DNA of 64,000 bases from a virus (IMGVR_UViG_2671180890_000004), one strand, 5' to 3'. Counted from the stretch's first letter, positions 2,771 to 37,896 are shown. A program made the numbers and translations. Notes: generated from the sequence alone by a model not told the origin.

Positions 2771-4184
2771 TGAGGACATCTTTTATACTGCCCTTAGCGA
2801 TAATAGCGCGACCAATAGCTGTAAGGGTTGCCAGCGCTGCGCGGTCTGCTCCGGTAAAATAAGGCAACCGATCTGCTGCAGTGGCAAGTCCTGCCAGAGC
2901 AGTGAGCGTGGCATCTGCCGGTTGTTTTCCGTTTGCCAGATCGTATGCAGCCTTGACCGCTTTCGGTGTGGCGGCCAGTATTTCAGACGTGCTGTTGATG
3001 GCACTGCTCAATTGTATGGTGCCTTTTGCCGTCAGCGAGGCAGCAGGCACTCCCGTTATCTGACTCCACGGGTGAGTGTGGCTGACGGGCGCCTTGCCGG
3101 CTGCAAGGTCGTATGCAGCCTTGACCGCCTTCGGCGTGGCAGCCTCAGTTTCTGATTGACTGTCCGTGGCGCTGCTCAGTTGTACGGTGCCTTTTGCCGT
3201 CAGCGAGGCAGCAGGCACTCCCGTTATCTGACTCCACGGGTGAGTGTGGCTGACGGGGGCCTTGCCGGCAGCCAGGTCATATGCAGCCTTGACGGCCTTT
3301 GGTGTGGCGGCCAGCGTTTCAGAGGTGCTGTTGGTGGCACTGCTCAGTTGTACGATCCCTTTACGGGTCGTTGTTGCATCCTGGGCTGTGTATTTTCCCC
3401 GGGCCAGATCATACGCGATTTTCACAGCCTTCGGCGTGGCAGCCTCAGTTTCTGATTGACTGTCCGTGGCGCTGCTCAGTTGTACGGTGCCTTTTGCCGT
3501 CAGCGAGGCAGCAGGCACTCCCGTTATCTGACTCCACGGGTGAGTGTGGCTGACGGGGGCCTTGCCGGCAGCCAGGTCATATGCAGCCTTGACGGCCTTT
3601 GGTGTGGCGGCCAGCGTTTCAGAGGTGCTGTTGGTGGCACTGCTCAGTTGTACGATCCCTTTACGGGTCGTTGTTGCATCCTGGGCTGTGTATTTTCCCC
3701 GGGCCAGATCATACGCGATTTTCACAGCCTTCGGCGTGGCAGCCTCAGTTTCTGATTGACTGTCCGTGGCACTGCTCAGCTGTACGGTGCCTTTTGCCGT
3801 CAGCGAGGCAGCAGGCACTCCCGTTATCTGACTCCACGGGTGAGTGTGACTGACGGGTGCCTTGCCGGCTGCAAGGTCGTATGCAGCCTTGACGGCTTTT
3901 GGTGTGGCGGCCAGCGTTTCAGAGGTGCTGTTGGTGGCACTGCTCAGTTGGGTGAACCCCTTAGCTGTCAGTGTCGCGTCCGGGTGGTTACGGGAACGTA
4001 CGTGTTCAGCCAGTGACTGTGCGGCTTCCTCCGTTTTTTTCTTCAGCCATTTCGTCCTGTTTGCCAGTTGCCGGGGGGCTCGATTTGATATCCCGTCAGC
4101 ACCACCCAGAACCGGATCTGATGTCTCCAGTTGATAGATTTTTTCTTCCCACTTTTCTGTTTCATTCAGGTTTCCCATAATCAA
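2685..4184 (-). CDS. Tail fibre protein, constant N-terminal part with tandem fibre repeats; frame ends inside crossover repeat C
   Basis: 499 aa with reiterated SSATxSxSET-AATPKAVK-AYDLA-GK units; translation ends 8 codons after GEGSALP because of a frameshift. Confidence 0.8.
   Translation of the reverse strand: MIMGNLNETEKWEEKIYQLETSDPVLGGADGISNRAPRQLANRTKWLKKKTEEAAQSLAEHVRSRNHPDATLTAKGFTQLSSATNSTSETLAATPKAVKAAYDLAAGKAPVSHTHPWSQITGVPAASLTAKGTVQLSSATDSQSETEAATPKAVKIAYDLARGKYTAQDATTTRKGIVQLSSATNSTSETLAATPKAVKAAYDLAAGKAPVSHTHPWSQITGVPAASLTAKGTVQLSSATDSQSETEAATPKAVKIAYDLARGKYTAQDATTTRKGIVQLSSATNSTSETLAATPKAVKAAYDLAAGKAPVSHTHPWSQITGVPAASLTAKGTVQLSSATDSQSETEAATPKAVKAAYDLAAGKAPVSHTHPWSQITGVPAASLTAKGTIQLSSAINSTSEILAATPKAVKAAYDLANGKQPADATLTALAGLATAADRLPYFTGADRAALATLTAIGRAIIAKGSIKDVLNYLGLGEGSALPLVCLFRGPPPHRQQAG
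2900..3960 (-). repeat. Tandem 300-bp coding repeats in tail fibre gene
   Basis: Antisense ORFs 3156-3455 and 3456-3755 have identical 99-aa translations, so the units are perfect copies; diverged copies flank them. Confidence 0.8.
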
Positions 4185-4771: not shown

Positions 4772-5855
4772 TCATGTTAAGTGTGATCGCCGTACAGTTT
4801 GCCCATTCGTTTTCTGCCACCACCCTCAGTGCCGGTGTCACCAGTTCAACCTGGTACACCCCGGAAACGGACAATGCACTGATAATCTGGCTGGGGACAA
4901 TATCACGCCCCAGCGTGGCGGCACGTGATGCCACCCAGTTCTGTATGGCGCTGTTAGCGGCATCTTTTACAGACCTGGCATCCTGATCACGATAGATCGT
5001 AATCCTGGCTTCAATGGTGTAATCCACCTTCACTGGTGTTTTAGCCCGCACTGTATCAGTGAGTGGCCTGACTTTCTCATCAGAGCAGAAACTCTCTACC
5101 AGCGTGAGAACACCGCCGTCCGGCAGACCGGTACTGAGCAGCGGATACAGATCTACGGTCCCGGGAACCGGGGAAAGCACAGCAACATCGACAATGTTGG
5201 GATGGGCCTGCATGGCATGAAAGCGGTATGCGCCACGGCTTCCGGCATTGGTGAATGACTCCGGGGCCAGCCTGATACGCTCCCGGAGCCTGTCATCGTC
5301 TTCCTGTTCTGAACCGCCGGAACTGGCCGTCAGATTGCTCACCAGCAGGTCGACGTTATCAATCTCATCGAGTAACTGACTGACCTGCGCAGGTTGCCAG
5401 CCGTTACCAGCGGTACCGGGTTCGGTACAGGTGGACGTGACATTGACCAGCAGCAATCCGGCCTTCAGTACCACATCTGTATCGGTGGCAAAAATAACGC
5501 TGTCGGAAGCGCTGACGCGGGTGCCTGCCGGGATCAGCACATCAATGGTCAGTGCCTCATCCACAGAGAACTGAAGTGTGGTGGTGGCAGGCTGCGCGGC
5601 AAGGCGGTATACACCAACCAGTTCTCCGAGGTAATCAATCATCGGCTCTCGTGAAAAGGCGACCAGATTCTGCTTTGCTGCCTCCTGTACCGCAACCCTG
5701 ACCAGCATTTCGCGATAGGCCCACAGATCAATCAGCAGACGTTCTGCCTGTGCCGGGTACAGCGTTTTGCCGGTATCCGCTTCATACTTCGCAATCATTT
5801 CTGCCGTGATTTTGTCGGCATCGCGTTCAATAAAATCGGGTTCTGTCAGCGCCAT
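4752..5855 (-). CDS. Baseplate protein J-like
   Basis: 367 aa, position after gpW-like gene, conserved baseplate gene order. Confidence 0.8.
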   Translation of the reverse strand: MALTEPDFIERDADKITAEMIAKYEADTGKTLYPAQAERLLIDLWAYREMLVRVAVQEAAKQNLVAFSREPMIDYLGELVGVYRLAAQPATTTLQFSVDEALTIDVLIPAGTRVSASDSVIFATDTDVVLKAGLLLVNVTSTCTEPGTAGNGWQPAQVSQLLDEIDNVDLLVSNLTASSGGSEQEDDDRLRERIRLAPESFTNAGSRGAYRFHAMQAHPNIVDVAVLSPVPGTVDLYPLLSTGLPDGGVLTLVESFCSDEKVRPLTDTVRAKTPVKVDYTIEARITIYRDQDARSVKDAANSAIQNWVASRAATLGRDIVPSQIISALSVSGVYQVELVTPALRVVAENEWANCTAITLNMSGVSDD

Positions 5856-6193
5856 AGCAACTCCTGAGTCCGGGTCTGTCCGTCTGAGCCTTTCCAGCTC
5901 ACCCGGAGCGTAAGATGTTCGCCGTCGACGGCGGGTTTAACTGACATAAGCTGGCAGCGGGGCTCCCAGCGTCGGATGGCATCGACGGATTCGCGCACCA
6001 CATGCGGAATGGCCCGGTCTACAGGCCAGTCGATATAAAGATGCAGATTGCTGCCGAACTCCGGGCGATGCGGGTCGCTGCCGCGGGGAGTCCGCAGGAT
6101 AATTTGAATCGCCTGCCGGATATCATCCAGCCCCCGGACAATTTCGCCGGGAGCCTGCAGGGTCGGTTGCCAGAATACTGAGGTTGTTTTCAT
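5846..6193 (-). CDS. Baseplate wedge protein (gpW/gp25-like)
   Basis: 115 aa, size and order between V-like and J-like genes. Confidence 0.75.
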   Translation of the reverse strand: MKTTSVFWQPTLQAPGEIVRGLDDIRQAIQIILRTPRGSDPHRPEFGSNLHLYIDWPVDRAIPHVVRESVDAIRRWEPRCQLMSVKPAVDGEHLTLRVSWKGSDGQTRTQELLWR

Positions 6194-6247
6194 GGGGGCA
6201 GTATTGCCCCCGTGCGGGAACGCTGATATTAAAGGCGTTTAAAAAGC

Positions 6248-6844
6248 TCAGTGGGAGTGGTGGCTGGAGTTTTCGCCATCAGACAACATACTGCCCGTGG
6301 CATGGGCATTCCCTTTAATCTCGATATTGCCATGGATGGTCGCGGTAACACCTTCACCACCAGAACCCGCCATGCCTCCTTCGTAAATCAGCTTACCCCT
6401 GACACGCAGATCTCCGGTAAGTTCGGTTTCCGGTGCGTCAATCGTGGCTTTCTGTGTTTTCAATACCACATCAGCACCACACTCAATGACAATATGCTCA
6501 ATGCCGCCCCGGATGATCAGAGTGTGCGTCTTCCGGTTGTAGCTGTACTCTGCACCATCAGCAAACCGGGTTCCCCGGATATTTTTGTCACTGAACGGTG
6601 GTTTATCGACGTCTGAATACACCGCGCCCAGAATAACACCATCCTCGCCGTTGGCATCGAGCAGCACCTCAACCTGCTCCCCCACGTCAGGGAGCCAGTA
6701 ATCTTTGTTATCCTGGGTATTGCGCTGCAGCACGTTAAGCCAGTTTGTGCGCAGGTTATCGCATTCAGGCAGACGAACGCGGGCCTGAACCCTGTCGGCA
6801 TCAACGGCACTGACCGTACCGACCTGACGAGTGACACCAGTCAT
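6248..6844 (-). CDS. Baseplate spike/assembly protein V-like
   Basis: 198 aa, Gly-rich C-terminus, position in baseplate cluster. Confidence 0.7.
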   Translation of the reverse strand: MTGVTRQVGTVSAVDADRVQARVRLPECDNLRTNWLNVLQRNTQDNKDYWLPDVGEQVEVLLDANGEDGVILGAVYSDVDKPPFSDKNIRGTRFADGAEYSYNRKTHTLIIRGGIEHIVIECGADVVLKTQKATIDAPETELTGDLRVRGKLIYEGGMAGSGGEGVTATIHGNIEIKGNAHATGSMLSDGENSSHHSH

Positions 6845-8013
6845 TTTTTCTTCTCTCTTATTACTGTGGACGTGCTGCCGTCCGGTTTATAGATGGTCAG
6901 CATCCGGGTTTTGCCGATTTTTTTACCTTTCTTCGCCTTGCCCTGTGTGATCGGCCCCCGTGCCACTTCCAGCTCTGTGGTGTAGCCGCTGTTACGGTCA
7001 AACGCATGGCGGGCAGTGGTTATGAGCCATGGCCCGGATAACTGCCCAAAACCCACCAGTTCAATTTTGTTGCCTGCTGTCAGTTGAGGTGTTCCCGTCA
7101 GCGTCAGGGAGCCGTTCTGCTGGTATTCGTTATGTCTGGCCAGTGCTGAATCCGCTTTAATCCGGGCACTGTCCGGGTCGCTGACGCGGCTGTTAACTTT
7201 AAGTGAGTCAGCGCTGGTAACCTTACCACCTTTGAGCTTTTTGTCGCTTTCACGGGTACCACCATCAGCTTCGTAGACGATCAGTTTTTTACTGCTGCTT
7301 TTCTGGTGTTTTACCTTTGCAGATTTATAGACCCGGTTGATGGTGTCACGCAGGGAAAAGCGGGCCACATCCTGCGGTTTTAACTGCCTGACCGGCTCCT
7401 GACTGCGCAGTGTGGCCAGATGAGAAAAAATCAGCTGGTCACTGACCACTTTCACTGCATAACCATACTCGCTGGCCAGCCGGCGCAGAAAACCCACGTC
7501 GGTTTCAGCATACTGGGTCACCCGGTCGATTCTGATGGACTCAATGCTGCCCACCAGTTTCAGCCGGTGCTTTCTGGCAATCCGCCCCGCAACAGCTGCC
7601 AGCGTGGTGTTCTCAAAACCACGACTGGTTTTAGTCCGCAGGGCACTGTTAACCGAGGTGGCCACCCCACGGATAGAAACAACGGAAGCGGGCGAACTCA
7701 CTTCGATCTCGTCTATAGAGAACGTACCGCAGGACAGCAGCTTCTCGTCCTGATAGCCCATTTTCAGCGTCAGCGTGTCACCCTTGCCCGGATACCACTT
7801 ATCCAGCCAGCGGCCATCGGTGTCGTCCAGCTCCACCTCAATGGTATCGGACTCATTTTTGATGTTATCGCTCCAGGTCACACGGGTGACATAAGGCGCG
7901 ATATCAGAGGTGATGTTTTTCTGCAGATACCACAGAGTGAACACCGGTGTCAGCACATCGCTGACGCCGGTTAACGCTGATGTGACTTGCGCAGTGCTGT
8001 TTATCTCAGCCAT
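6841..8013 (-). CDS. Tail protein D (late control D family)
   Basis: 390 aa, size and position downstream of X/U-like genes. Confidence 0.7.
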   Translation of the reverse strand: MAEINSTAQVTSALTGVSDVLTPVFTLWYLQKNITSDIAPYVTRVTWSDNIKNESDTIEVELDDTDGRWLDKWYPGKGDTLTLKMGYQDEKLLSCGTFSIDEIEVSSPASVVSIRGVATSVNSALRTKTSRGFENTTLAAVAGRIARKHRLKLVGSIESIRIDRVTQYAETDVGFLRRLASEYGYAVKVVSDQLIFSHLATLRSQEPVRQLKPQDVARFSLRDTINRVYKSAKVKHQKSSSKKLIVYEADGGTRESDKKLKGGKVTSADSLKVNSRVSDPDSARIKADSALARHNEYQQNGSLTLTGTPQLTAGNKIELVGFGQLSGPWLITTARHAFDRNSGYTTELEVARGPITQGKAKKGKKIGKTRMLTIYKPDGSTSTVIREKKK

Positions 8014-25768: not shown

Positions 25769-26119
25769 TTAAAGCCCCATCGCAACAGCCAGACAGACCG
25801 CTGCAACAATCAGTGCACGGCGGATTAACGCAGCAGAAAACACCAGGTGAAGGCCGGTCTGTACCGGGAAACGCCCATCAGCCATCAGCCTGTCGTCATG
25901 TTTCAGGTACTGACCGGGACGGGCTTTGGGGAAGAGCGAACGGTCAAGCCAGTAACCCAGCACTGCTGCCAGCGTGATGAGTGCCAGCTTGTAGATCACA
26001 ACAGGCAACTGCTGTGGCGAGACCAGAGCGATGGTGCCCAGCAACAGCACTGAGGTCAGCAGCCAGCCGCTGAGGCGAGGTTTTTTAACAGGGGGAATGA
26101 ATTTTTTCAGGTTTTTCAT
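25769..26119 (-). CDS. Putative holin (three predicted TM helices)
   Basis: Directly upstream of endolysin gene; start at MKNLKKFIPP uncertain. Confidence 0.5.
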   Translation of the reverse strand: MKNLKKFIPPVKKPRLSGWLLTSVLLLGTIALVSPQQLPVVIYKLALITLAAVLGYWLDRSLFPKARPGQYLKHDDRLMADGRFPVQTGLHLVFSAALIRRALIVAAVCLAVAMGL

Positions 26120-26249
26120 GTGTGTCTCCTTGTCTGGTGGAGACAGCATCACAAATACAGGGCGCGAAGGATTTTAAAGCGCGTTAAGAGAGCCGGGGAT
26201 ACGGGATGTGCAGGATAAACGATGAATTATTCACAGAGGAGAATACGAT

Positions 26250-26993
26250 ATGACGCAGACACTGAATCCGGTCATCACTGTCACCGTGTCCGGTCCTGTG
26301 GGCAGCGGTAAAAGTTACATATTGGCGCGGATAGAGGAAGTGGTGAAACAGGAATTCGGGGGCAGCGTCATTGTCGATGCTGCAGACGTAGATGATGAGC
26401 GGCGTATGAGTGGCGATGATCTGACGACCTGGCAGAAGCCACGGGGTGGCACAGTGATCAGGCTGGAGGAATACACGGGACAGGGCCTGTTGTCATACGG
26501 CGAGGAGCGTATCTGTCGGACGAATGAGCTGCTGGATGTTATATGCCCCACGGGCCGGCAACCCTGGATACTGCCCGATGCACTGCATGCCACCATTGCG
26601 GCACTGATGACAGTTTACGATCAGGAGCTGCTCATGAAGGAGCTACGTAAACTCACCGGTCAGCCAACAGAATGTTTTTCTGCCCCGAAGTACGGGAAAC
26701 AGGAACACATCCCGGTGAACACGCTCCCCGTTAACCAGCCTCCCCGGTTCTTCGACGAATACATTCTGACACCGGAAAATAAAGCTGAGCACGAAGAGAT
26801 CAAAGCGGCGTTGTTCCGGGAAATCAGGAAGATTGCTGAAATGCAACTGGGGGGCGGGCTGGACAGAGTGATGGCGAGAGGAGAATGGGAGTCGCTGTTT
26901 GAAAGAGTTTCCCCGGAATTACTTCCCCTCGCACTGGCTATCGGGATTATGCAGACAGCGGATAAACCTCACTTACGTTCATTAAACACGTAA
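26250..26993 (+). CDS. Hypothetical protein with N-terminal Walker A (P-loop) motif
   Basis: 247 aa; VTVSGPVGSGKSYIL followed by VIVDAADVDDE; no wider family recognised. Confidence 0.5.
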   Translation: MTQTLNPVITVTVSGPVGSGKSYILARIEEVVKQEFGGSVIVDAADVDDERRMSGDDLTTWQKPRGGTVIRLEEYTGQGLLSYGEERICRTNELLDVICPTGRQPWILPDALHATIAALMTVYDQELLMKELRKLTGQPTECFSAPKYGKQEHIPVNTLPVNQPPRFFDEYILTPENKAEHEEIKAALFREIRKIAEMQLGGGLDRVMARGEWESLFERVSPELLPLALAIGIMQTADKPHLRSLNT

Positions 26994-27373
26994 CGCATAA
27001 TCCGGGATACGCATTCAGCGATGACTGCATTTTCACCGGTTTTTACTGCATCCAGAAGTGACTCTTTAAATGGTGCGGGCCGGGGCTGCAGAAGGGTCGG
27101 CGTGGCATTGAGCAGACGGAGCGTTTTTTCCGTGAGGACGACATCAGCCGCTCCCACAGCCAGCAACTGAGAGTAACGAATATAGCTGTTATCCCGAAGC
27201 CATATCAGCGTATCAATAAAATACCGGCACTTTTTCTGGTCGTGATCAACCTGGTCCGGGATATCGAAAAAACCAGAATAAATCAAAACCTGAGGTGCCG
27301 GATGCGTGTTCAGTAATCGGCAGAATATTTTGCCGGTGAGTGCATAAAAATCATCATTTAAGGAGTGCATCAT
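26969..27373 (-). CDS. Hypothetical 134-aa protein, convergent with P-loop gene
   Basis: ORF only; overlaps P-loop gene 3' end by 25 nt and shares a CATG with the divergent start of the next plus-strand ORF. Confidence 0.3.
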   Translation of the reverse strand: MMHSLNDDFYALTGKIFCRLLNTHPAPQVLIYSGFFDIPDQVDHDQKKCRYFIDTLIWLRDNSYIRYSQLLAVGAADVVLTEKTLRLLNATPTLLQPRPAPFKESLLDAVKTGENAVIAECVSRIMRYVFNERK

Positions 27374-27587
27374 GAATCCCCGATTAACGTTAACAGAACA
27401 TCAGCGCCGTGCTGAAGCAGTGAACAATGTTCTGGAAGATATTATCCGGTTACATCGCGGAGAACTGAGTGTCTGTCGTGCCGCTTTTCATTTTCAGGGA
27501 ATACAAAAGCAGTTTGATACTTCTGTTTTTGCAGAAGGTATTACTTATGCCCTGGACCGGATAAGGTCAGAAAATCGCCCCGGATAA
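27372..27587 (+). CDS. Hypothetical 71-aa protein
   Basis: Small ORF upstream of Dam-like gene. Confidence 0.3.
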   Translation: MNPRLTLTEHQRRAEAVNNVLEDIIRLHRGELSVCRAAFHFQGIQKQFDTSVFAEGITYALDRIRSENRPG

Positions 27588-27778
27588 TCCCTAAACCACA
27601 TTAACAGAAATCCCACTATCCCTGCCGCATCATGAAAGAACGACCAGCCCGGTGCTTCGGACCCACCGGGCTGGCCATCGTCCCACAGAAGTGGCTGTGA
27701 GCCGACCGAGGTTCAGTCAGTCTCGCGAGACCAGACTAGCCTGCCATATTTTTAATAATTGTAAAAGGCTTACAGATT

Positions 27779-28543
27779 ATGAAAATGAAGACATTACCCA
27801 TCGTTCCATGGATTGGTGGCAAACGTCGCCTGGCAAAACACATCCTGCCGCTGTTTCCGGCGCATGAATGTTATGTGGAGCCGTTTTGTGGGGCAGCAGC
27901 GCTCTATTTTCTTAAGACACCCGGCAAGATCGAAGTCATCAATGATATCAACGGTGAACTGGTGAATCTGTACCGGGTGGTAAAGCATCACCTGGAAGAA
28001 TTTGTCCGCCAGTTCAAATGGGCGCTGGTCAGCCGTCAGATCTACAAATGGCTGCAGATCACCCCGGAAGAAACACTGACGGATATCCAGCGTGCGGCAC
28101 GGTTCTACTACCTTCAGAAGCAGGCGTTTGGCGGCAAGGTGGCAGAGCACAGCTTCGGTACCTCCACCACATCCCCGCCACGCTTCAACCTGCTGCGTAT
28201 TGAAGAAGAACTGTCAGCAGCACACCTGCGGCTTTCCAGAACAGTCATAGAACACATGGACTGGCAACAGTGCATTGAGCGTTATGATCGTCCGCACACA
28301 CTGTTCTACTGCGACCCACCGTACCTGGGTACGGAAGGCTATGGTGTGGATTTTCCTGAAGGGAACTACTCGCGGCTGGCAGAGCTGGCCCGGTGCATCA
28401 GAGGAAAAATGATAATTTCGGTGAACGATATCCCACAGATGCGCGAGGTGTTCACTGGACTGAACATACAGACAGTGAACATCAACTACAGTCTGGCGGG
28501 GAAATCTACGCCGCGCCGTGAACTGGTAATCTGCAACTTCTGA
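27779..28543 (+). CDS. dam: DNA adenine methyltransferase (Dam family)
   Basis: 254 aa with N-terminal PWIGGKRRL, FCGAAA and DPPY catalytic motif. Confidence 0.85.
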   Translation: MKMKTLPIVPWIGGKRRLAKHILPLFPAHECYVEPFCGAAALYFLKTPGKIEVINDINGELVNLYRVVKHHLEEFVRQFKWALVSRQIYKWLQITPEETLTDIQRAARFYYLQKQAFGGKVAEHSFGTSTTSPPRFNLLRIEEELSAAHLRLSRTVIEHMDWQQCIERYDRPHTLFYCDPPYLGTEGYGVDFPEGNYSRLAELARCIRGKMIISVNDIPQMREVFTGLNIQTVNINYSLAGKSTPRRELVICNF

Positions 28544-28552
28544 AACAAAACC

Positions 28553-28590
28553 GGAAAGCACAATGCTTTCCGGTAAACCAAACAACTTCC
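28553..28590. terminator. Bidirectional hairpin terminator between convergent Dam-like and repressor genes
   Basis: Perfect inverted repeat ACCGGAAAGC-ACAAT-GCTTTCCGGT. Confidence 0.5.
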
Positions 28591-28659
28591 ACTATGTCAC
28601 TGGCGATGTTTTCTGAAAGCATCCAGATCAACCACCTGTCCTTTGTGTCCAGGTCAAAA

Positions 28660-28998
28660 TCAGCCTGCGAGTTTGCTTGGTTTGGGTTGAATGAAGACTT
28701 TGCCGACCTCAAGAATTGCCCTCCGTTGTTCGGGGCTCATTTCGTCGAATGCATCCATTAACTCTTTCTTTTCTTGTGACACATAAGGTGCAACAACAGG
28801 CTGACTCCGCACCCCAGTAACTACATACAAAATATCTACACCGATTTCTGATAGTGCAGATAACTGCACTGCAGTAGGAGAAGTGCGATCTTTTTCCCAA
28901 TCAATGAAAGTTCTCTTTGCCACACCTATAGCATCAGCCAACCCTTGCTGTGTAAGAGATAGACGCTCTCTTTCTTCTTTAATACGTAACCCGATCAT
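28660..28998 (-). CDS. Phage repressor (HTH, XRE-type), Mu c analogue
   Basis: HTH segment LSLTQQGLADAIGVAKRTFIDWEKD; divergent from Ner-like gene across a 100-bp region; start moved to MIGLRIKEER. Confidence 0.65.
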   Translation of the reverse strand: MIGLRIKEERERLSLTQQGLADAIGVAKRTFIDWEKDRTSPTAVQLSALSEIGVDILYVVTGVRSQPVVAPYVSQEKKELMDAFDEMSPEQRRAILEVGKVFIQPKPSKLAG

Positions 28999-29098
28999 GT
29001 GAGTTTTTCTGCACTCTTTAAGTTGACTGGTGAGGTAATCTGCACCATAATCTATCACACATAAGGCAAACATCATTGCATCAACAAAGGAGACAACG

Positions 29099-29287
29099 AT
29101 GACTGCAGAACAAGTCAAAGCTCTCTTCCGCCAGCGCGGGATCACTTTCACCCGCTGGGCAGAAGAAAACGGCTACAACCGCAATGAGGTATACCGCGTT
29201 CTCAATGGGCAGACCAAAGCCCGTTACGGTAAATCCCATGAAATCGCCGTGAAGTTGGGGCTGAAATCAACAGCTCAGGCAGCCTGA
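29099..29287 (+). CDS. Ner/Cro-like small DNA-binding protein
   Basis: 62 aa HTH protein, first gene of early operon, divergent from repressor. Confidence 0.55.
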   Translation: MTAEQVKALFRQRGITFTRWAEENGYNRNEVYRVLNGQTKARYGKSHEIAVKLGLKSTAQAA

Positions 29288-29333
29288 AGATTTTGAGTCT
29301 TTGTAAAAGGTTATCACATATCGCAAAAGAGGT

Positions 29334-29648
29334 ATGCAGATGAGTAAGACGAATGTTTCAAGCTCCGGCAGTCGCATCCTCCGGGTACTCAAAGCGCTGC
29401 GCGGTCATGCCCTGAACGGTATTTCCAACGGTGAACTGGCGGCAGCACTGCACGAGTCACCGGCAAACATCAACCGGGCACTCAACACCCTCATTGAAGA
29501 AGGGTTGGCCCTGAAACTGGAAAACGGGCGTTTCGCGCCGGGCATCCAGTTACTGCAGATCGCTATGGCCCACAGTAACGAGATGGCACGTGCACAGGAT
29601 CGCATTAACGAAATCAACCAACGTGTCATTTCAGGTAGTCGTTTGTAA
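29334..29648 (+). CDS. Winged-helix transcriptional regulator-like protein
   Basis: 104 aa with HTH-like ISNGELAAALHESPANINRALNTLIEEGL. Confidence 0.45.
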   Translation: MQMSKTNVSSSGSRILRVLKALRGHALNGISNGELAAALHESPANINRALNTLIEEGLALKLENGRFAPGIQLLQIAMAHSNEMARAQDRINEINQRVISGSRL

Positions 29649-34446: not shown

Positions 34447-34641
34447 ATGATATTTAAATGTATTCAGTGCGAGAGGGATATAACAGCCCTGCGTTTTCAC
34501 AGCGCCATCGCCGTGATGTCCGGTAAGTACCACGTACCTGCAGTACGCGTCACCCTGGTCTGTCCGTACTGCAGTCAGCATTTTTCGGCAGACGTGCCCG
34601 TCATGGAATTCTCCCGCCCTGACAGGGAGGACTCGCAATGA
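34447..34641 (+). CDS. Small zinc-ribbon-like protein
   Basis: 64 aa with CxxC...CPYC cysteine pairs. Confidence 0.4.
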   Translation: MIFKCIQCERDITALRFHSAIAVMSGKYHVPAVRVTLVCPYCSQHFSADVPVMEFSRPDREDSQ

Positions 34642-34919: not shown

Positions 34920-35225
34920 ATGACACGGAACACCGAACTCACCCGCACCGCCCTCTACCGTCTGGCCCTGCAGCGTTTCGGGCCGGACGCACAGGCCCTG
35001 AAACTGACAGAAGAGGCCGCTGAACTGGCGGCCAGTGCCGCCCGCAACCTGAACGGACAGGGCAGCGAAAGTGACCTCGCGGCAGAGCTGGCAGACGTGG
35101 AAATCATGACAGAGCAGCTGCGCCTTCAGGGAATGGACCGGCTGATTGACTTCCACAAACAGAAAAAACTGGAACGCCTTGCCGCACGGCTGGGCGTCAT
35201 GTACACCGGAGATACTGAACAATGA
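34920..35225 (+). CDS. MazG-like nucleotide pyrophosphohydrolase domain protein
   Basis: 101 aa with acidic EEAAELAASAARN...AAELADVEIM helices typical of small MazG-like enzymes. Confidence 0.55.
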   Translation: MTRNTELTRTALYRLALQRFGPDAQALKLTEEAAELAASAARNLNGQGSESDLAAELADVEIMTEQLRLQGMDRLIDFHKQKKLERLAARLGVMYTGDTEQ

Positions 35226-35905
35226 CAGACCAGGATAAACACATTGAGAAACTGAAAAAGTTGCTGGCGCTGGCCGCATCCGGCAACCCTCACGAGGCCG
35301 CTCTGGCACTGCGCCGTGCCCGTAAACTGATGGATGTTCACGGCATCACACATTCCGACATCGCCATGAGTGATATTGATGAAACCATCAGTCACTACTG
35401 GCCGACAGGCAGCCTCCGTCCACCGCGCTACATGCTGGGCCTGATGAACATCATCCGCGAGGCATTTGGTGTTAACTCCATCATTCACCCCGGCACATAT
35501 CCGGGTGTGGGGTTCTACGGCAACCGGGAACGGGCTGCACTGGCTGCGTACACCTGGGAAGTGCTGGCCCGCCAGCTGAAAAAGGCGCGTCAGCAATATA
35601 TCAGCGCACAGAACAAAAGAATAAAAACTGCCACCCGTACCAGCCGTGGTGACCAGTTTGCTGAAGGCTGGGTGCTGGCCGTTATCAGTGAAATACAGTC
35701 CTTCGCCCTGACCGATGACGAACGTGAACTGATGCAGCAGTGGCTGGAACATAAATACCCGCAGACGCAAACCACCAGGGCGCGTAAACCGGGAAGAAGC
35801 CGCAATGGCGACGCCTCGCGCTATGCGGGGTTTCTTGAAGGGCAGAACGTCAGACTGCACCGCCCGGTCAGTGGGCAGGAACAACAGAAACTGGAGGCCA
35901 GATGA
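35222..35905 (+). CDS. Hypothetical early protein
   Basis: 227 aa, N-terminal KLKKLLALAASGNPHEAALALRRARKLM helix pair. Confidence 0.4.
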   Translation: MTDQDKHIEKLKKLLALAASGNPHEAALALRRARKLMDVHGITHSDIAMSDIDETISHYWPTGSLRPPRYMLGLMNIIREAFGVNSIIHPGTYPGVGFYGNRERAALAAYTWEVLARQLKKARQQYISAQNKRIKTATRTSRGDQFAEGWVLAVISEIQSFALTDDERELMQQWLEHKYPQTQTTRARKPGRSRNGDASRYAGFLEGQNVRLHRPVSGQEQQKLEAR

Positions 35906-36132
35906 TTACGCTATCAGGTAAAAGCCGGAAATTAAAAGCCTGCCGAATATCTGCCAGATACCTTTTTGCCCGCGCCTTTTTTAAGAACGTCAGGCCGGGG
36001 ATCACAATTGGTGTTATTGCCGGACGCGAACAGGTTGAAAAATACATGTCAGGTGCATGGTGGAATAACGACCCTGTCATTGCTGCCCGTAATATTCATA
36101 TCAGTTGGGGGGATATTCAGAATGACGGCTGA
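35902..36132 (+). CDS. Hypothetical 76-aa protein
   Basis: ORF only. Confidence 0.3.
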   Translation: MITLSGKSRKLKACRISARYLFARAFFKNVRPGITIGVIAGREQVEKYMSGAWWNNDPVIAARNIHISWGDIQNDG

Positions 36133-36337
36133 ATCTGTTGTATGTGCCCTGTTCTGGTATTGTTTTGTCGGTTGGTGTACTGCTGAACTGCACCGCCGTT
36201 CAGGGTTTTATTCACGTTACAGTGGTGCTGGCTACTGGATTAGCTGGTCGGTGATGTTCCTGTGCTGGCCTGTGGCGCTTCCTTTATATGTCGATTATAT
36301 CGGTGGCGCAGGTAAAAGGAGCAACGATGATGACTAA
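36122..36337 (+). CDS. Small membrane protein
   Basis: 71 aa with two hydrophobic segments. Confidence 0.35.
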   Translation: MTAESVVCALFWYCFVGWCTAELHRRSGFYSRYSGAGYWISWSVMFLCWPVALPLYVDYIGGAGKRSNDDD

Positions 36338-36779
36338 ACAACGTCTTATCCAGCTCATTCATATTGCCCGTAATGAACTGGGTATGGATGAAGACACCTA
36401 CCGCCAGATGTTACAGGGGCTGACCGGTAAAGCCTCAACCAAAGGAATGGATACCACACAACTAAACTGCGTGCTGGAATCCATGAAAAGGAAAGGCTTT
36501 CGCGTTAAGCCTGCCGGAAAAGCCAGCTCCGGTTTACCGCTGGATAACCATCCGCAGTCCAGGAAAATCCGTGCGCTATGGCTTGAAATGGCTGCTGCCG
36601 GCATTGTTCGTGACCGTTCAGAAAATGCATTAGCGCGGTGGATCAAGCGGGAAACGGGCATCAGCGCCCTGCGCTGGCTCAGTACTGAACAGGCAAGCAG
36701 TGTTATTGAGAAACTGAAGAAGTGGCAGCGCAGAGCTGCGGGAGTCAAACATGAGCGACCTGAATCAGTTTCGAAGTAA
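36327..36779 (+). CDS. GemA/gp16-like protein
   Basis: About 150 aa immediately upstream of Mor-like gene. Confidence 0.55.
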   Translation: MMTKQRLIQLIHIARNELGMDEDTYRQMLQGLTGKASTKGMDTTQLNCVLESMKRKGFRVKPAGKASSGLPLDNHPQSRKIRALWLEMAAAGIVRDRSENALARWIKRETGISALRWLSTEQASSVIEKLKKWQRRAAGVKHERPESVSK

Positions 36780-37149
36780 AGGGCCGGAACTCCTGGTGGA
36801 GCTGGCACAGCATACCTCTGAGACCGTTCGCGAGATTATTGATATTGAGCCCGCAATTGCCGACCAGATTGGTCAGGCCGTCGCGAACCGAATGATGCAG
36901 GTCTGGGGCGGGCAAAACGTTTATTTCCCGATGGGCATGGTATGGAAGGTCAGTCAGCGCGACCGGGAAATCTTCAGGGAGTTTAACGGACGCAACCACC
37001 ACGAACTGGCCCGCAAGTTTGGTGTTTCGCTTCAGTGGGTCTACAGCGTGGTTAAGCGGGTCAGAAAAGAAGAACTGGATCGGATGCAGGGCAGGTTGTT
37101 TGATGAAGATCTGCCAGAGGAGACGAAAGACGTTAACAAATCCAGATAA
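36751..37149 (+). CDS. mor: Mor/C-family transcription activator
   Basis: 132 aa, C-terminal HTH HELARKFGVSLQWVYSVVKR; last gene of early operon. Confidence 0.7.
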   Translation: MSDLNQFRSKGPELLVELAQHTSETVREIIDIEPAIADQIGQAVANRMMQVWGGQNVYFPMGMVWKVSQRDREIFREFNGRNHHELARKFGVSLQWVYSVVKRVRKEELDRMQGRLFDEDLPEETKDVNKSR

Positions 37150-37189
37150 TTCCTGCTTGTTAAAGTCCTTTCAAAAATCTCCTTATTGT

Positions 37190-37230
37190 ATAAAAGCACG
37201 GTAGACCCCTTACCGTGCTTTTTTTATGCT
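37190..37230 (+). terminator. Rho-independent terminator after Mor-like gene
   Basis: Hairpin AAAGCACGGTAG...TACCGTGCTTT followed by T-run. Confidence 0.6.
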
Positions 37231-37263
37231 CTCTCTTTAGTATTCAGGATGCAGGGAGAAAAT

Positions 37264-37896
37264 ATGTTTGACGTTTCGTTGTTAAATCTGCCATGGGCAA
37301 CACTGGTGACCCTGACCAGTGGCTATATTGGGTATTTTATTGCGAATGTGGGACTGAAGGATCACCACAAGCCCATTGAGGTGACTTTTTCTTCGCTGAT
37401 TTTTGGCCTGACAGCAATGATGGCTTACCAGGCTGTTATGTGGGCAGGTCTGAATGCCTGGCTGGCAACACCACCAGCACTTCTGTGTGCCCTTACATGC
37501 GGTGCGTGGTGGCGCAGGTACGGTCGCAAATGGATGTACAGATTACTGTGGAATAATGATATTTCATGGTCTGACGATACCAGCTCAGCATGGCAGGCAA
37601 TGTTTGATCAAACAGGCTTCAGCGTTACCGAGGTCAGAGTGATTCTTCGCGATGGTTCCGGTATGATGTCACGGCTGCCAGGGAACTTTGAAGAGTGGCC
37701 TAACGGTCCGTTTACCCTGGGGAATAAAGGCGATATGGTTCTTTACGTCACGCACAGCAGCCCTTCAGGCAGTAACGAATGGGAAGAGTATAAAGGCGTG
37801 GTTGATAAGTACTGGGGAGCTCTGGCAACCTATATTCCAGCAGATCAGATTGCCAGAGTGGAGATCAGGCGCGTTCGTGCAACGAACGATGAATGA
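37264..37896 (+). CDS. Membrane protein with two to three N-terminal TM helices and about 110-aa soluble C-terminal domain
   Basis: Start chosen at ATG after AGGGAG RBS; last gene before the prophage terminus. Confidence 0.5.
   Translation: MFDVSLLNLPWATLVTLTSGYIGYFIANVGLKDHHKPIEVTFSSLIFGLTAMMAYQAVMWAGLNAWLATPPALLCALTCGAWWRRYGRKWMYRLLWNNDISWSDDTSSAWQAMFDQTGFSVTEVRVILRDGSGMMSRLPGNFEEWPNGPFTLGNKGDMVLYVTHSSPSGSNEWEEYKGVVDKYWGALATYIPADQIARVEIRRVRATNDE

Follow-up and report, generated by a model that had tools for sequence, protein, structure and literature searches.

Among the closest described relatives of the locus considered here are the DNA-modification operons of transposable phages. In phage Mu, mom is switched on by Com, which binds a short hairpin that adjoins a structure inhibiting translation (PMC6483171); other Mu-like phages have a methylase in place of Mom downstream of com (PMC3299994). 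Pairs of the latter kind include ORF47/ORF48 of Pseudomonas phage B3 and HI1522.1/hin1523 of FluMu. The present locus occupies positions 26250 to 28590 of a 64,000-nucleotide stretch of viral DNA (IMGVR_UViG_2671180890_000004; this whole stretch is called the window). It contains genes for a 247-amino-acid (247-aa) protein, a 134-aa protein encoded on the opposite strand, a 71-aa protein and a D12-class N6-adenine DNA methyltransferase (the first three are referred to as the trio). The main new result is a structured RNA leader of the methylase that has covariation support and is tied to com operons. Comparison of related prophages indicates that the region as a whole is a patchwork of three independently mobile cassettes in the cargo slot of a BcepMu-like prophage. 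A preliminary description of the block, made from its sequence alone, was largely right: the block is accessory and its P-loop protein is unrecognised, while the functional linkage that it proposed between that protein and the methylase is wrong.

The methylase is already known as an uncharacterised orphan. M.EcoMIV (EC958_1101) of the Escherichia coli ST131 strain EC958 was described as a D12 orphan methylase on the prophage Phi2 and as "a Dam homolog" (Forde et al. 2015, PMC4659465). It is transcribed significantly below dam in EC958, no methylation motif was assigned to it, and as of 2015 REBASE held no recognition site for homologues with more than 65% identity (PMC4659465). EC958 carries the block in a BcepMu-like prophage, which we take to be Phi2, and we infer from description and position, not from locus-tag mapping, that the EC958 gene at 1031787-1032551 is M.EcoMIV. 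The window methylase is 98.8% identical to the Phi2 enzyme and thus essentially the same gene, in the same block of the same type of prophage; the leader, the neighbouring cassette and the link to com operons are not described in PMC4659465. It is also 63% identical to ORF48 of phage B3 and has at least 600 relatives in IMG/VR. As the preliminary description had stated, the enzyme is a complete member of the D12/Dam family. It matches PF02086 (E = 5.9e-29, 102 bits vs a cut-off of 22) and TIGR00571 (117.4 bits vs a cut-off of 114.85), and it has the DPPY motif (motif IV) at residue 179 and the S-adenosylmethionine-binding motif I (FxGxG) as the variant FCGAA at residue 36. Among the PADLOC models only generic MTase_II/orphan-methylase models match (MTase_II model PDLC03253, 375 bits), and the gene is an orphan with no restriction enzyme nearby.

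The methylase gene and the helices of its leader are arranged as follows.

27779-28543, plus strand: gene for the 254-aa D12-class N6-adenine DNA methyltransferase (open reading frame (ORF) map, family profiles)
27612..27784, plus strand: structured leader of the methylase mRNA, about 150 nt (fold, covariance model, ATG at 27779)
27638-27641 with 27711-27714, plus strand: leader helix P0 (MAFFT/RNAalifold)
27644-27654 / 27664-27674, plus strand: leader P1, a long hairpin with perfect 11-bp arms; consensus helix about 27638-27679
27685-27688 (ACAG) / 27695-27698 (CUGU), plus strand: leader P2
about 27716-27738, plus strand: leader P3, the mid hairpin
27738-27742 (AGCCU) / 27766-27770 (AGGCU), plus strand: leader P4, covering the Shine-Dalgarno sequence, 9-12 nt before the ATG

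The 190 bp 5' of the methylase have an unusually stable fold (z = -3.6 and -4.8; plus strand z = -4.78), and the leader is conserved throughout the related loci, whether or not they have the trio. A covariance model (R1) built on 14 leader sequences matches directly 5' of the methylase or of com in 57 of 76 Dam-anchored loci (L024-L103) and also in the window, L006 and L010, always on the coding (plus) strand. In the R1 alignment 92% of cells are paired, compared with 77% in shuffles and at most 50% when the partners are slid, and both-sided changes occur in 17 of the 28 pairs. An independent MAFFT/RNAalifold analysis of 21 diverse members recovered P0, P1 and P2 with 18 of 20 pairs compensated (10 of 11 in P1); here P0 is a long-range helix that closes a three-way junction (P0-P1-P2). 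The mid hairpin P3 is present in all 21 sequences although these are unrelated in sequence at this point. A first RNAalifold draft of P3 (GAGCC:GGUUC) was rejected as it had 79% of cells paired with one-sided changes only, and P0, which uses the same 3' strand, is better supported. P4 has 99% of its cells paired, with covariation (U-A 22, G-C 18 and U-G 6 at one pair, 18 G-U at another), and because these G-U pairs would be A-C mismatches on the other strand, P4 is a plus-strand RNA helix. Thus the translation start signals of the methylase are, by computational prediction, hidden in RNA structure, with P4 lying over the Shine-Dalgarno sequence. The minimum free energy fold also pairs CUGUGAGCC with GGCUUACAG, and a possible helix CUGUG:UACAG uses the 5' strand of P2; one position covaries with both the P2 and the CUGUG:UACAG partners, which hints at alternative structures.

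A scan of window positions 26000-29400 with Rfam, on both strands, gave no match at E <= 1. The leader family has dozens of diverse members with good covariation, is absent from Rfam as such, and is ready for curation and experimental testing. As a concrete RNA structure that can be mutated, it gives access to the timing of DNA modification in phages. Locus L034 has the leader twice: a weaker copy (R1 28 bits; nhmmer match to the P1 part) lies at 3818-3980 (plus strand), 5' of another small cargo gene that encodes 85-91 aa (MGITCDEYETAAKIY...) and that is also found 3' of the methylase in L030. Since this copy precedes a different cargo gene, the leader appears to be attachable to other genes.

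The leader is linked to com by its position in relatives. A clear homologue of Mu Com is encoded between leader and methylase in L055, L061, L069 and L084, and in phage B3 the R1 model matches directly 5' of com (ORF47; E = 2.6e-5), which is followed by the ORF48 methylase; R1 gives no match in Mu itself. The presence of the same leader before com-methylase operons points to a late function like that of Mu com/mom. Because the same leader and a related methylase occur together in these operons, we read the window methylase as a probable Mom-type late function under translational control. Like mom, it is a DNA-modification gene of a transposable phage that is weakly transcribed in the lysogen, as seen in one related strain (PMC4659465), and that is preceded by a predicted RNA structure hiding the translation start signals. 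Unlike the described operons, the window prophage has no com between leader and methylase, the enzyme is of the D12 class and not Mom, and the gene lies in the middle of the prophage genome between the late and immunity regions instead of at its right end. In addition, the leader precedes com in the relatives whereas the Com target of Mu lies inside com, just before mom.

Every step of mechanism beyond the conservation of sequence and structure is inferred, as are the functions proposed below for the 247-aa protein and for the 134-aa/71-aa pair. Leader and methylase would be the ancestral resident of the slot, the methylase belonging to the clade that com-methylase operons of B3 and other Mu-like phages encode, and being a functional analogue of Mu mom. 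The methylase would be silent in the lysogen and made late, modifying phage DNA against restriction, with translation starting only once the inhibitory leader structure opens. The opener could be a Com-like protein, a competing helix (P2 or the alternative helix) or relief from an antisense RNA. Together with the com link, the leader offers an explanation for the apparent silence of M.EcoMIV-type enzymes in methylome studies. The sole Com-like candidate in the window is a 64-aa CxxC-N30-CxxC protein (MIFKCIQCER...LVCPYCSQHF) encoded in the early region at 34447-34641 (plus strand), which may be a relocated Com-like partner of the leader. A gene for a Mor-family activator lies at 36751-37149.

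The other genes of the block and the two edges of the cargo slot are the following.

25769..26119, minus strand: holin gene, the first of the leftward lysis/late operon and the left edge of the cargo slot (PF13272, phrog_1528)
26250-26993, plus strand: gene for the 247-aa protein (ORF map)
26969-27373, minus strand: gene for the 134-aa protein, with a 25-nt convergent overlap with the 247-aa gene (ORF map)
27372-27587, plus strand: gene for the 71-aa protein, pointing at the methylase (ORF map)
28660..29151, minus strand: HTH_3 immunity repressor gene, the right edge of the cargo slot (PF01381 E = 3e-7, annotation)

The ORF map places all four ORFs of the block where the preliminary description had put them, between lysis cassette and immunity region. 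The left flank encodes the holin (PF13272 E = 1.5e-41; phrog_1528; RefSeq has a putative holin at the corresponding position), an SLT endolysin and spanins, and the right flank the HTH_3 repressor, whose start in RefSeq is at 29118. The late genes of the prophage are to the left on the minus strand, while the repressor, transposase, Gam, GemA and Mor genes are to the right. The prophage, which had been called Mu-like, belongs with BcepMu (Bcepmuvirus) and not with Mu proper.

The composition of the slot was compared among 17 BcepMu-like prophages from IMG/VR, anchored on the methylase, together with Serratia prophages, Klebsiella phage KP12, EC958 and L104. The window arrangement occurs in four methylase-anchored loci, and L027 has the same arrangement without the 134-aa gene. 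In seven loci (L030-L033, L035, L036 and L040) methylase and leader lie about 250 bp from the holin with no trio between. Elsewhere the methylase has alternative cargo beside it: a DUF2441 protein (L034 and KP12), a 173-aa protein (L028) or a 151-aa protein with the N-domain only (L039). Cargo 3' of the methylase varies as well, and includes a KwaA-like and NA37 pair (L031) and a distant 134-aa homologue (L037/L038). In L104 a 343-aa relative of the 247-aa protein adjoins the holin of a prophage that has no methylase. Serratia prophages have the order holin, 89 aa, 139 aa, 73 aa, methylase, and their 89-aa protein matches residues 182-233 only of the 247-aa protein (its C-terminal ~55 aa). In P2-like phages the 134-aa family and a head-to-head small partner occur without 247-aa or methylase neighbours. 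Because related prophages hold each module without the others, the genes of the block travel separately. The cargo slot would be set between the divergent late (lysis) and immunity/early regions, with the three modules moving into and out of it independently. The claim of an accessory block is supported.

The 247-aa protein contains, as the preliminary description had reported, the Walker A motif GPVGSGKS (GxxxxGK[ST]), at residues 15-22. It consists of an N-terminal mini P-loop domain (aa 1 to ~75; nt 26250-26477), a middle module (aa ~77-140), a linker and a C-terminal helical module (aa ~175-247), and the middle module is missing from natural variants of 182 aa, the C-terminal one from those of 141 aa. 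It belongs to phrog_3787 (E = 3.8e-164). An indexed search found close E. coli relatives only. When 1.84 billion representatives were searched with a full profile, 65 proteins were recovered, and nearly all of them share residues 1-75 only; members of 200-364 aa bear differing C-terminal modules that recur in shuffled order. Among 48 aligned relatives G20 and K21 are the sole invariant residues, and Ser22 is replaced by Asn (GKN) in some. As in P-loop NTPases (ABC, AAA_30, KAP), the motif follows a hydrophobic strand and is followed by a helix and a hydrophobic strand that ends in Asp (VIVD), yet the conserved unit is only ~75 residues and all family scores are under their cut-offs. In Pfam the best scores are 17.1 bits for AAA_30 (cut-off 27, residues 11-47) and 13.1 for KAP_NTPase (cut-off 20), in NCBIfam scores are 10-15 bits against cut-offs of 156-875, and all matches to curated NTPases fall within residues ~2-58. 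The only PADLOC match is mad8 (E = 0.0046, 14.5 bits). In an AlphaFold2 model the predicted local distance difference test score (pLDDT) is ~90 for residues 11-70 only, and a complete alpha/beta P-loop core (at least five strands, Walker B and sensor elements) is lacking.

Remote-homology searches and structure prediction thus found neither an NTPase fold nor an NTPase family, in line with the earlier statement that no NTPase domain is recognisable, and no described family claims the protein. We conclude that it is a rare Walker-A-like mini-domain of ~75 aa fused to exchangeable helical modules and not a classical NTPase; the definition of this mini P-loop domain family is new. The protein shows no sign of working with the methylase. 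The sole positional clue to its role is its constant site as first gene beside the holin promoter region, and our best guess is that it is an accessory factor of the late or moron type that would bind different targets through its variable modules. The public records of three 141-aa variants (P0016, P0017 and P0019) say "ABC transporter ATPase", which is likely a propagating annotation error because the label rests purely on the Walker A motif.

The start codons of the 134-aa and 71-aa genes overlap head to head: the plus-strand ATG (27372-27374) and the minus-strand ATG (27373-27371) share a CATG, just as had been described. The 134-aa ORF has a second ATG one codon in, and AAGGAG lies 7 nt 5' of the 71-aa ATG. 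The antisense 134-aa ORF of the preliminary description is a real, annotated and conserved gene (phrog_2266, WP_000972292) that overlaps the 247-aa gene by only 25 nt at the 3' ends. Its family has 85 members, all from Enterobacterales; a scan of genome contigs for it found only 3 loci. The 71-aa protein is helical (phrog_4490, E = 1.6e-52) and 30% identical to the 73-aa protein at the same position in Serratia, where the two genes of the pair are 1 nt apart. Relatives of the 134-aa protein with ~30% identity occur in P2-like phages (FSL SP-004, ST147-VIM1phi7.1 and Midge) and prophages, where they sit between replication gene A and the portal gene, beside Fic, DinI-like, YobI-ATPase, AAA_15 and AAA_13 genes. 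In these three phages and in L011-L015 a 60-64-aa ORF stands head to head with the large gene, with the same 2-nt CATG overlap, and faces variable cargo such as a YobI ATPase or an AAA_15 gene. That the head-to-head pair recurs in two lineages of phages is a new finding, and the 134-aa family marks defence-type hotspots. P2-like prophages and related islands (L014 1-3555, L015 852-3544 and L018 4493-6721) have the 134-aa homologue beside large ATPases, namely a YobI-ATPase of 1326 aa, an AAA_15 protein of 528 aa with a 368-aa partner, and an AAA_13/SMC_N protein of 742 aa.

Phages of the P2/186 type use face-to-face promoter switches, and an "excludon" consists of divergent genes with overlapping 5' transcripts. 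The pair resembles both in its divergent genes, one of them a putative regulator, and 5'-overlapping transcripts, and it too occurs in P2-like phages. It differs in having overlapping start codons and no intergenic space, in lying in cargo hotspots and not in the immunity region, and in its sequence, which is unrelated to C/Cox of P2 and CI/Apl of 186; neither promoters nor operators could be identified for it. As the start codons overlap with no space between the genes, each promoter must lie within the other gene, and both mRNAs must be complementary across both ribosome-binding sites. The pair would be a portable regulatory switch in which a DNA-binding repressor and its small partner interfere with each other. 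It would gate the gene faced by the small ORF, which is the methylase here and a variable defence-like gene in P2-like prophages. The idea that the large protein of P2-type pairs is a Tum-type antirepressor was dropped when tblastn of the phage collection gave no match outside the family. Prophage cargo hotspots have two more recurrent building blocks in the head-to-head pair and the mini P-loop domain, both of them uncharacterised.

Taken together, the best explanation of the locus is a mosaic slot with a leader-gated, Mom-like methylase, the 134-aa/71-aa pair as a switch and the 247-aa protein as an accessory fusion, to which we give a probability of about 0.6. Several observations weigh against it. 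Regarding the leader, the main IMG/VR covariation alignment was fitted to the R1 model, and in P1 the G-U and A-C cells are about equal, so that P1 and P2 are strand-symmetric and would be just as compatible with an antisense RNA or with a terminator on the minus strand. The evidence on transcription is a single reverse transcription PCR result from a related strain. No com gene lies by the leader in the window: positions 27588-27778 contain no CxxC...CxxC ORF, the 71-aa protein has one Cys, and no small early protein has a Pfam Com match or was found by regular expression as Com. The 64-aa candidate aligns loosely to the Com proteins of Mu, B3 and IMG/VR, with an insertion of ~14 aa, and fails Pfam Com. 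The methylase has no match for the GATC-contacting residues K9 and R124 of E. coli Dam (EcoDam) in a HMMER alignment. For the pair, the predicted winged-helix fold (putatively MarR/DtxR-like) of the 134-aa model is of moderate confidence (pLDDT 63) with no DNA-binding site identified, the homologues in L016, L018 and L037 lack a small partner, and a homology of the 71-aa protein with the 63-aa partners of P2-type pairs was rejected (hhalign probability 0.1%), the partners of the BcepMu and P2 types having no detectable relationship. A scan with the sigma-70 consensus found no convincing promoter at the head-to-head junction or 5' of the 247-aa gene. A broader proposal, that the leader is a new, widespread class of late-modification RNA switch and the pair a portable bistable "excludon" cargo switch of defence hotspots, is tentative. 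If it is true, this class of switch, with or without an antisense partner, spans transposable phages from Enterobacterales to Pseudomonas and beyond, and the leader may supply the RNA target context of Com that has long been missing in phages other than Mu.

The element 5' of the methylase could instead act mainly on the minus strand, as an antisense RNA of ~80-120 nt of the counter-transcribed RNA (ctRNA) type that ends at P1 and its U-tract, as a terminator guarding the lysis operon, or as both. Read on the minus strand, P1 runs into the U-rich tract UCGUUCUUUC, and the tract GAAAGA(A/G)CGACC 5' of P1, which is a U-rich tail on that strand, is near-invariant. Three distant members of the leader family (L094 4849-4927, L087 4849-4927 and L102 4848-4926) match Rfam RF00236 (ctRNA_pGA1) full-length on the minus strand with 45.1, 44.9 and 42.3 bits, close to the gathering score of 45. 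The resemblance extends to architecture, since members of RF00236 have two stem-loops followed by a U-rich tail and are antisense to the leader of the regulated mRNA. A scan of the window gives, both on the minus strand, a terminator-like site at 27663-27646 and a promoter-like site at 27785-27758, folding of that strand yields z = -3.3, and the equal G-U and A-C cells of P1 suit this reading. However, the window copy does not reach the RF00236 gathering threshold and has no match at E <= 1, and its context is a phage methylase instead of a plasmid rep gene. The minus-strand -10 hexamer is not conserved in relatives, the expected ctRNA promoter region is the hypervariable mid hairpin, and no conserved minus-strand promoter was found. 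P0, P3 and P4 lie outside or partly within the ctRNA span; P4 is outside it and has plus-strand-specific G-U pairs and covariation, and the orientation of the element and its distance to the downstream start codon are always kept. RF00236 may include phage elements or may catch a generic shape of two hairpins plus a terminator. The lysis operon has the same leftward orientation as the 134-aa gene and the repressor gene, so that transcripts running on past the repressor would otherwise enter the holin gene; in the leader model too, P1 with its minus-strand U-tract could stop them, or could end a ctRNA-like antisense transcript. P1-P2 may likewise encode or end an antisense RNA or act as a second terminator, and such a role can coexist with the leader model, sense-antisense pairs being usual in ctRNA systems. 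We regard the minus-strand reading as serious and compatible with the leader model; as the principal role of the element it seems rather doubtful. A similarly doubtful alternative is that the methylase is an ordinary GATC-specific Dam that serves phage replication, transposition or gene regulation and not Mom-like anti-restriction. It exceeds the TIGR00571 "dam" cut-off, its best solved relatives are DpnM and EcoDam, it has been termed "a Dam homolog", and the EC958 methylome holds no extra motif (PMC4659465), which fits a GATC enzyme because host Dam would mask it. On the other hand, the TIGR00571 score is marginal, the score against the E. coli Dam equivalog is 68 vs 441, and the residues aligned to K9, L122, R124 and P134 of EcoDam are P, K, A and S, in an alignment that is poor at the recognition loop. 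REBASE gives no recognition site for the closer homologues, and the EC958 methylome is uninformative on specificity because the gene is barely transcribed in the lysogen. Relatives moreover stand in com-methylase operons, the arrangement of Mom-type protection and of the non-specific Hia5-type methylases.

The 134-aa/71-aa pair might be an effector cassette, such as a toxin-antitoxin, abortive infection or superinfection exclusion system, in place of a regulatory switch. This is suggested by its place in known defence/moron hotspots of P2-like prophages, near YobI-type, AAA_15 and AAA_13 ATPases and Fic, and by a small partner that varies while the large protein is conserved, as is seen with antitoxin or immunity partners. 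Yet the genes are divergent whereas toxin-antitoxin genes are normally co-transcribed, and neither protein matches a toxin or antitoxin family of type II or any PADLOC, Pfam or NCBIfam model. The 134-aa protein has no match with E < 0.1 in a profile search of PDB sequences, nor one with E < 0.02 among viral structures in Foldseek; the record of phage Midge mentions a similarity to T7 gp5.5. Its predicted fold is a DNA-binding one with no recognisable enzymatic or membrane domain, and some members lack the partner without obvious decay. An effector role is unlikely on this evidence. The reading of the preliminary description, in which a single rightward operon combines the 247-aa P-loop protein with the small ORFs and Dam for anti-restriction, host takeover or defence, is already disfavoured and highly improbable. 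In its favour, the genes adjoin one another and most share a strand, hundreds of E. coli prophages have the entire block at 91-100% identity, and a related motif 5' of both the 247-aa gene and the methylase leader could mean common late regulation. Nevertheless, the methylase lacks the trio in at least seven related prophages, a P-loop relative occurs without methylase (L104), and the 134-aa family stands alone in P2-like phages, so the two proteins are not one unit. The supposed separate rightward transcription unit is too simple because the conserved leftward 134-aa gene sits in the middle of the block. The 247-aa family is conserved over residues 1-75 only with no NTPase fold detected, and the PADLOC matches in the block are generic methylase models. 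For annotation the lesson is that adjacent genes of a hotspot should not be read as one system.

The mosaic slot also contains a terminator and several DNA repeats.

28550..28574, minus strand: intrinsic terminator hairpin with an 11-bp stem and a 3-nt loop, then TTTGTTTC (terminator scan, minus strand only)
26173..26190, plus strand: motif TTTAAAGCGCGTTAAGAG in the holin/247-aa intergenic region (pattern search)
27375..27398 (left) and 27586-27609 (right), plus strand: 24-nt direct repeat of family D1, copies 75% identical

The hairpin before the repressor gene is perfect and in the place given by the preliminary description, which had called it bidirectional. The T-run is on the minus strand only (the plus-strand follow-on is AAACCAAAC), so it fits a terminator of the leftward repressor transcript and not a consensus bidirectional one. 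The hairpin is conserved in EC958 and, apart from one or two single-base differences around the loop, in L024 and L029. The TTTAAAGCGCGTTAAGAG pattern has five matches at up to three mismatches, compared with 0.82 expected. A related motif is found by upstream alignment just 5' of the methylase leader in prophages without the trio, and a weaker copy lies at 27586-27609; the motif is probably a promoter-proximal or cassette-joint sequence. Copies of GCATCATGAA at 27367 and 27627 (family D5) and the 24-nt repeats bracket the 71-aa gene, and these repeats look like cassette joints or duplicated promoter-proximal sequence. The left 24-nt copy holds the perfect palindrome TTAACGTTAA at 27384-27393, which was considered as an operator and rejected because it is not conserved at the Serratia junction; for the same reason it is better read as a probable cassette joint. 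The repeated motifs stand at the left edge of each rightward unit, and similar motifs occur near the late genes at 413-430 and 6226-6243 (both minus strand).

The block is 96% identical to that of phage PhiKM and is present in 635 of 5426 complete E. coli genomes (480 of these at 80% coverage or more). About every ninth complete E. coli genome therefore has a prophage of this type, and the pandemic ST131 clone is among the carriers. Between the window and EC958 the 247-aa, 134-aa and 71-aa proteins are 93%, 95.5% and 97% identical. The repressor (28660-29151; L021 2669-3025 in EC958) is only 24.5% identical, whereas the cargo block and the ner-like gene are 93-100% identical, which suggests immunity swapping at the hairpin boundary. 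The trio belongs to phage families without assigned function (phrog_3787, phrog_2266 and phrog_4490; E = 1e-164 to 1e-44) and all three genes are annotated in RefSeq. Public annotation of the block is limited to "hypothetical" or "DNA adenine methylase", and a literature search by accession number found nothing.

In L031, 3' of the methylase (5761-7976, minus strand), a 394-aa protein with a weak KwaA match (E = 7.8e-5) is encoded beside a 334-aa homologue of the nucleoid-associated protein NA37 (E = 1e-80), and the two genes may form a Kiwa-like defence pair. At the far end of the window prophage (1-2245) a recombinase (invertase) gene adjoins genes for tail fibres and tail-fibre assembly that have opposite orientations, an arrangement that resembles the invertible host-range cassette of the Mu G segment. 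At the other end, an ORF of up to 236 aa (37186-37896, plus strand), with no Pfam match, directly follows the Mor gene and is possibly another cargo gene. Comparison of the window with strain AR_0081 revealed an insertion or deletion in the early region at about 35200-36300.

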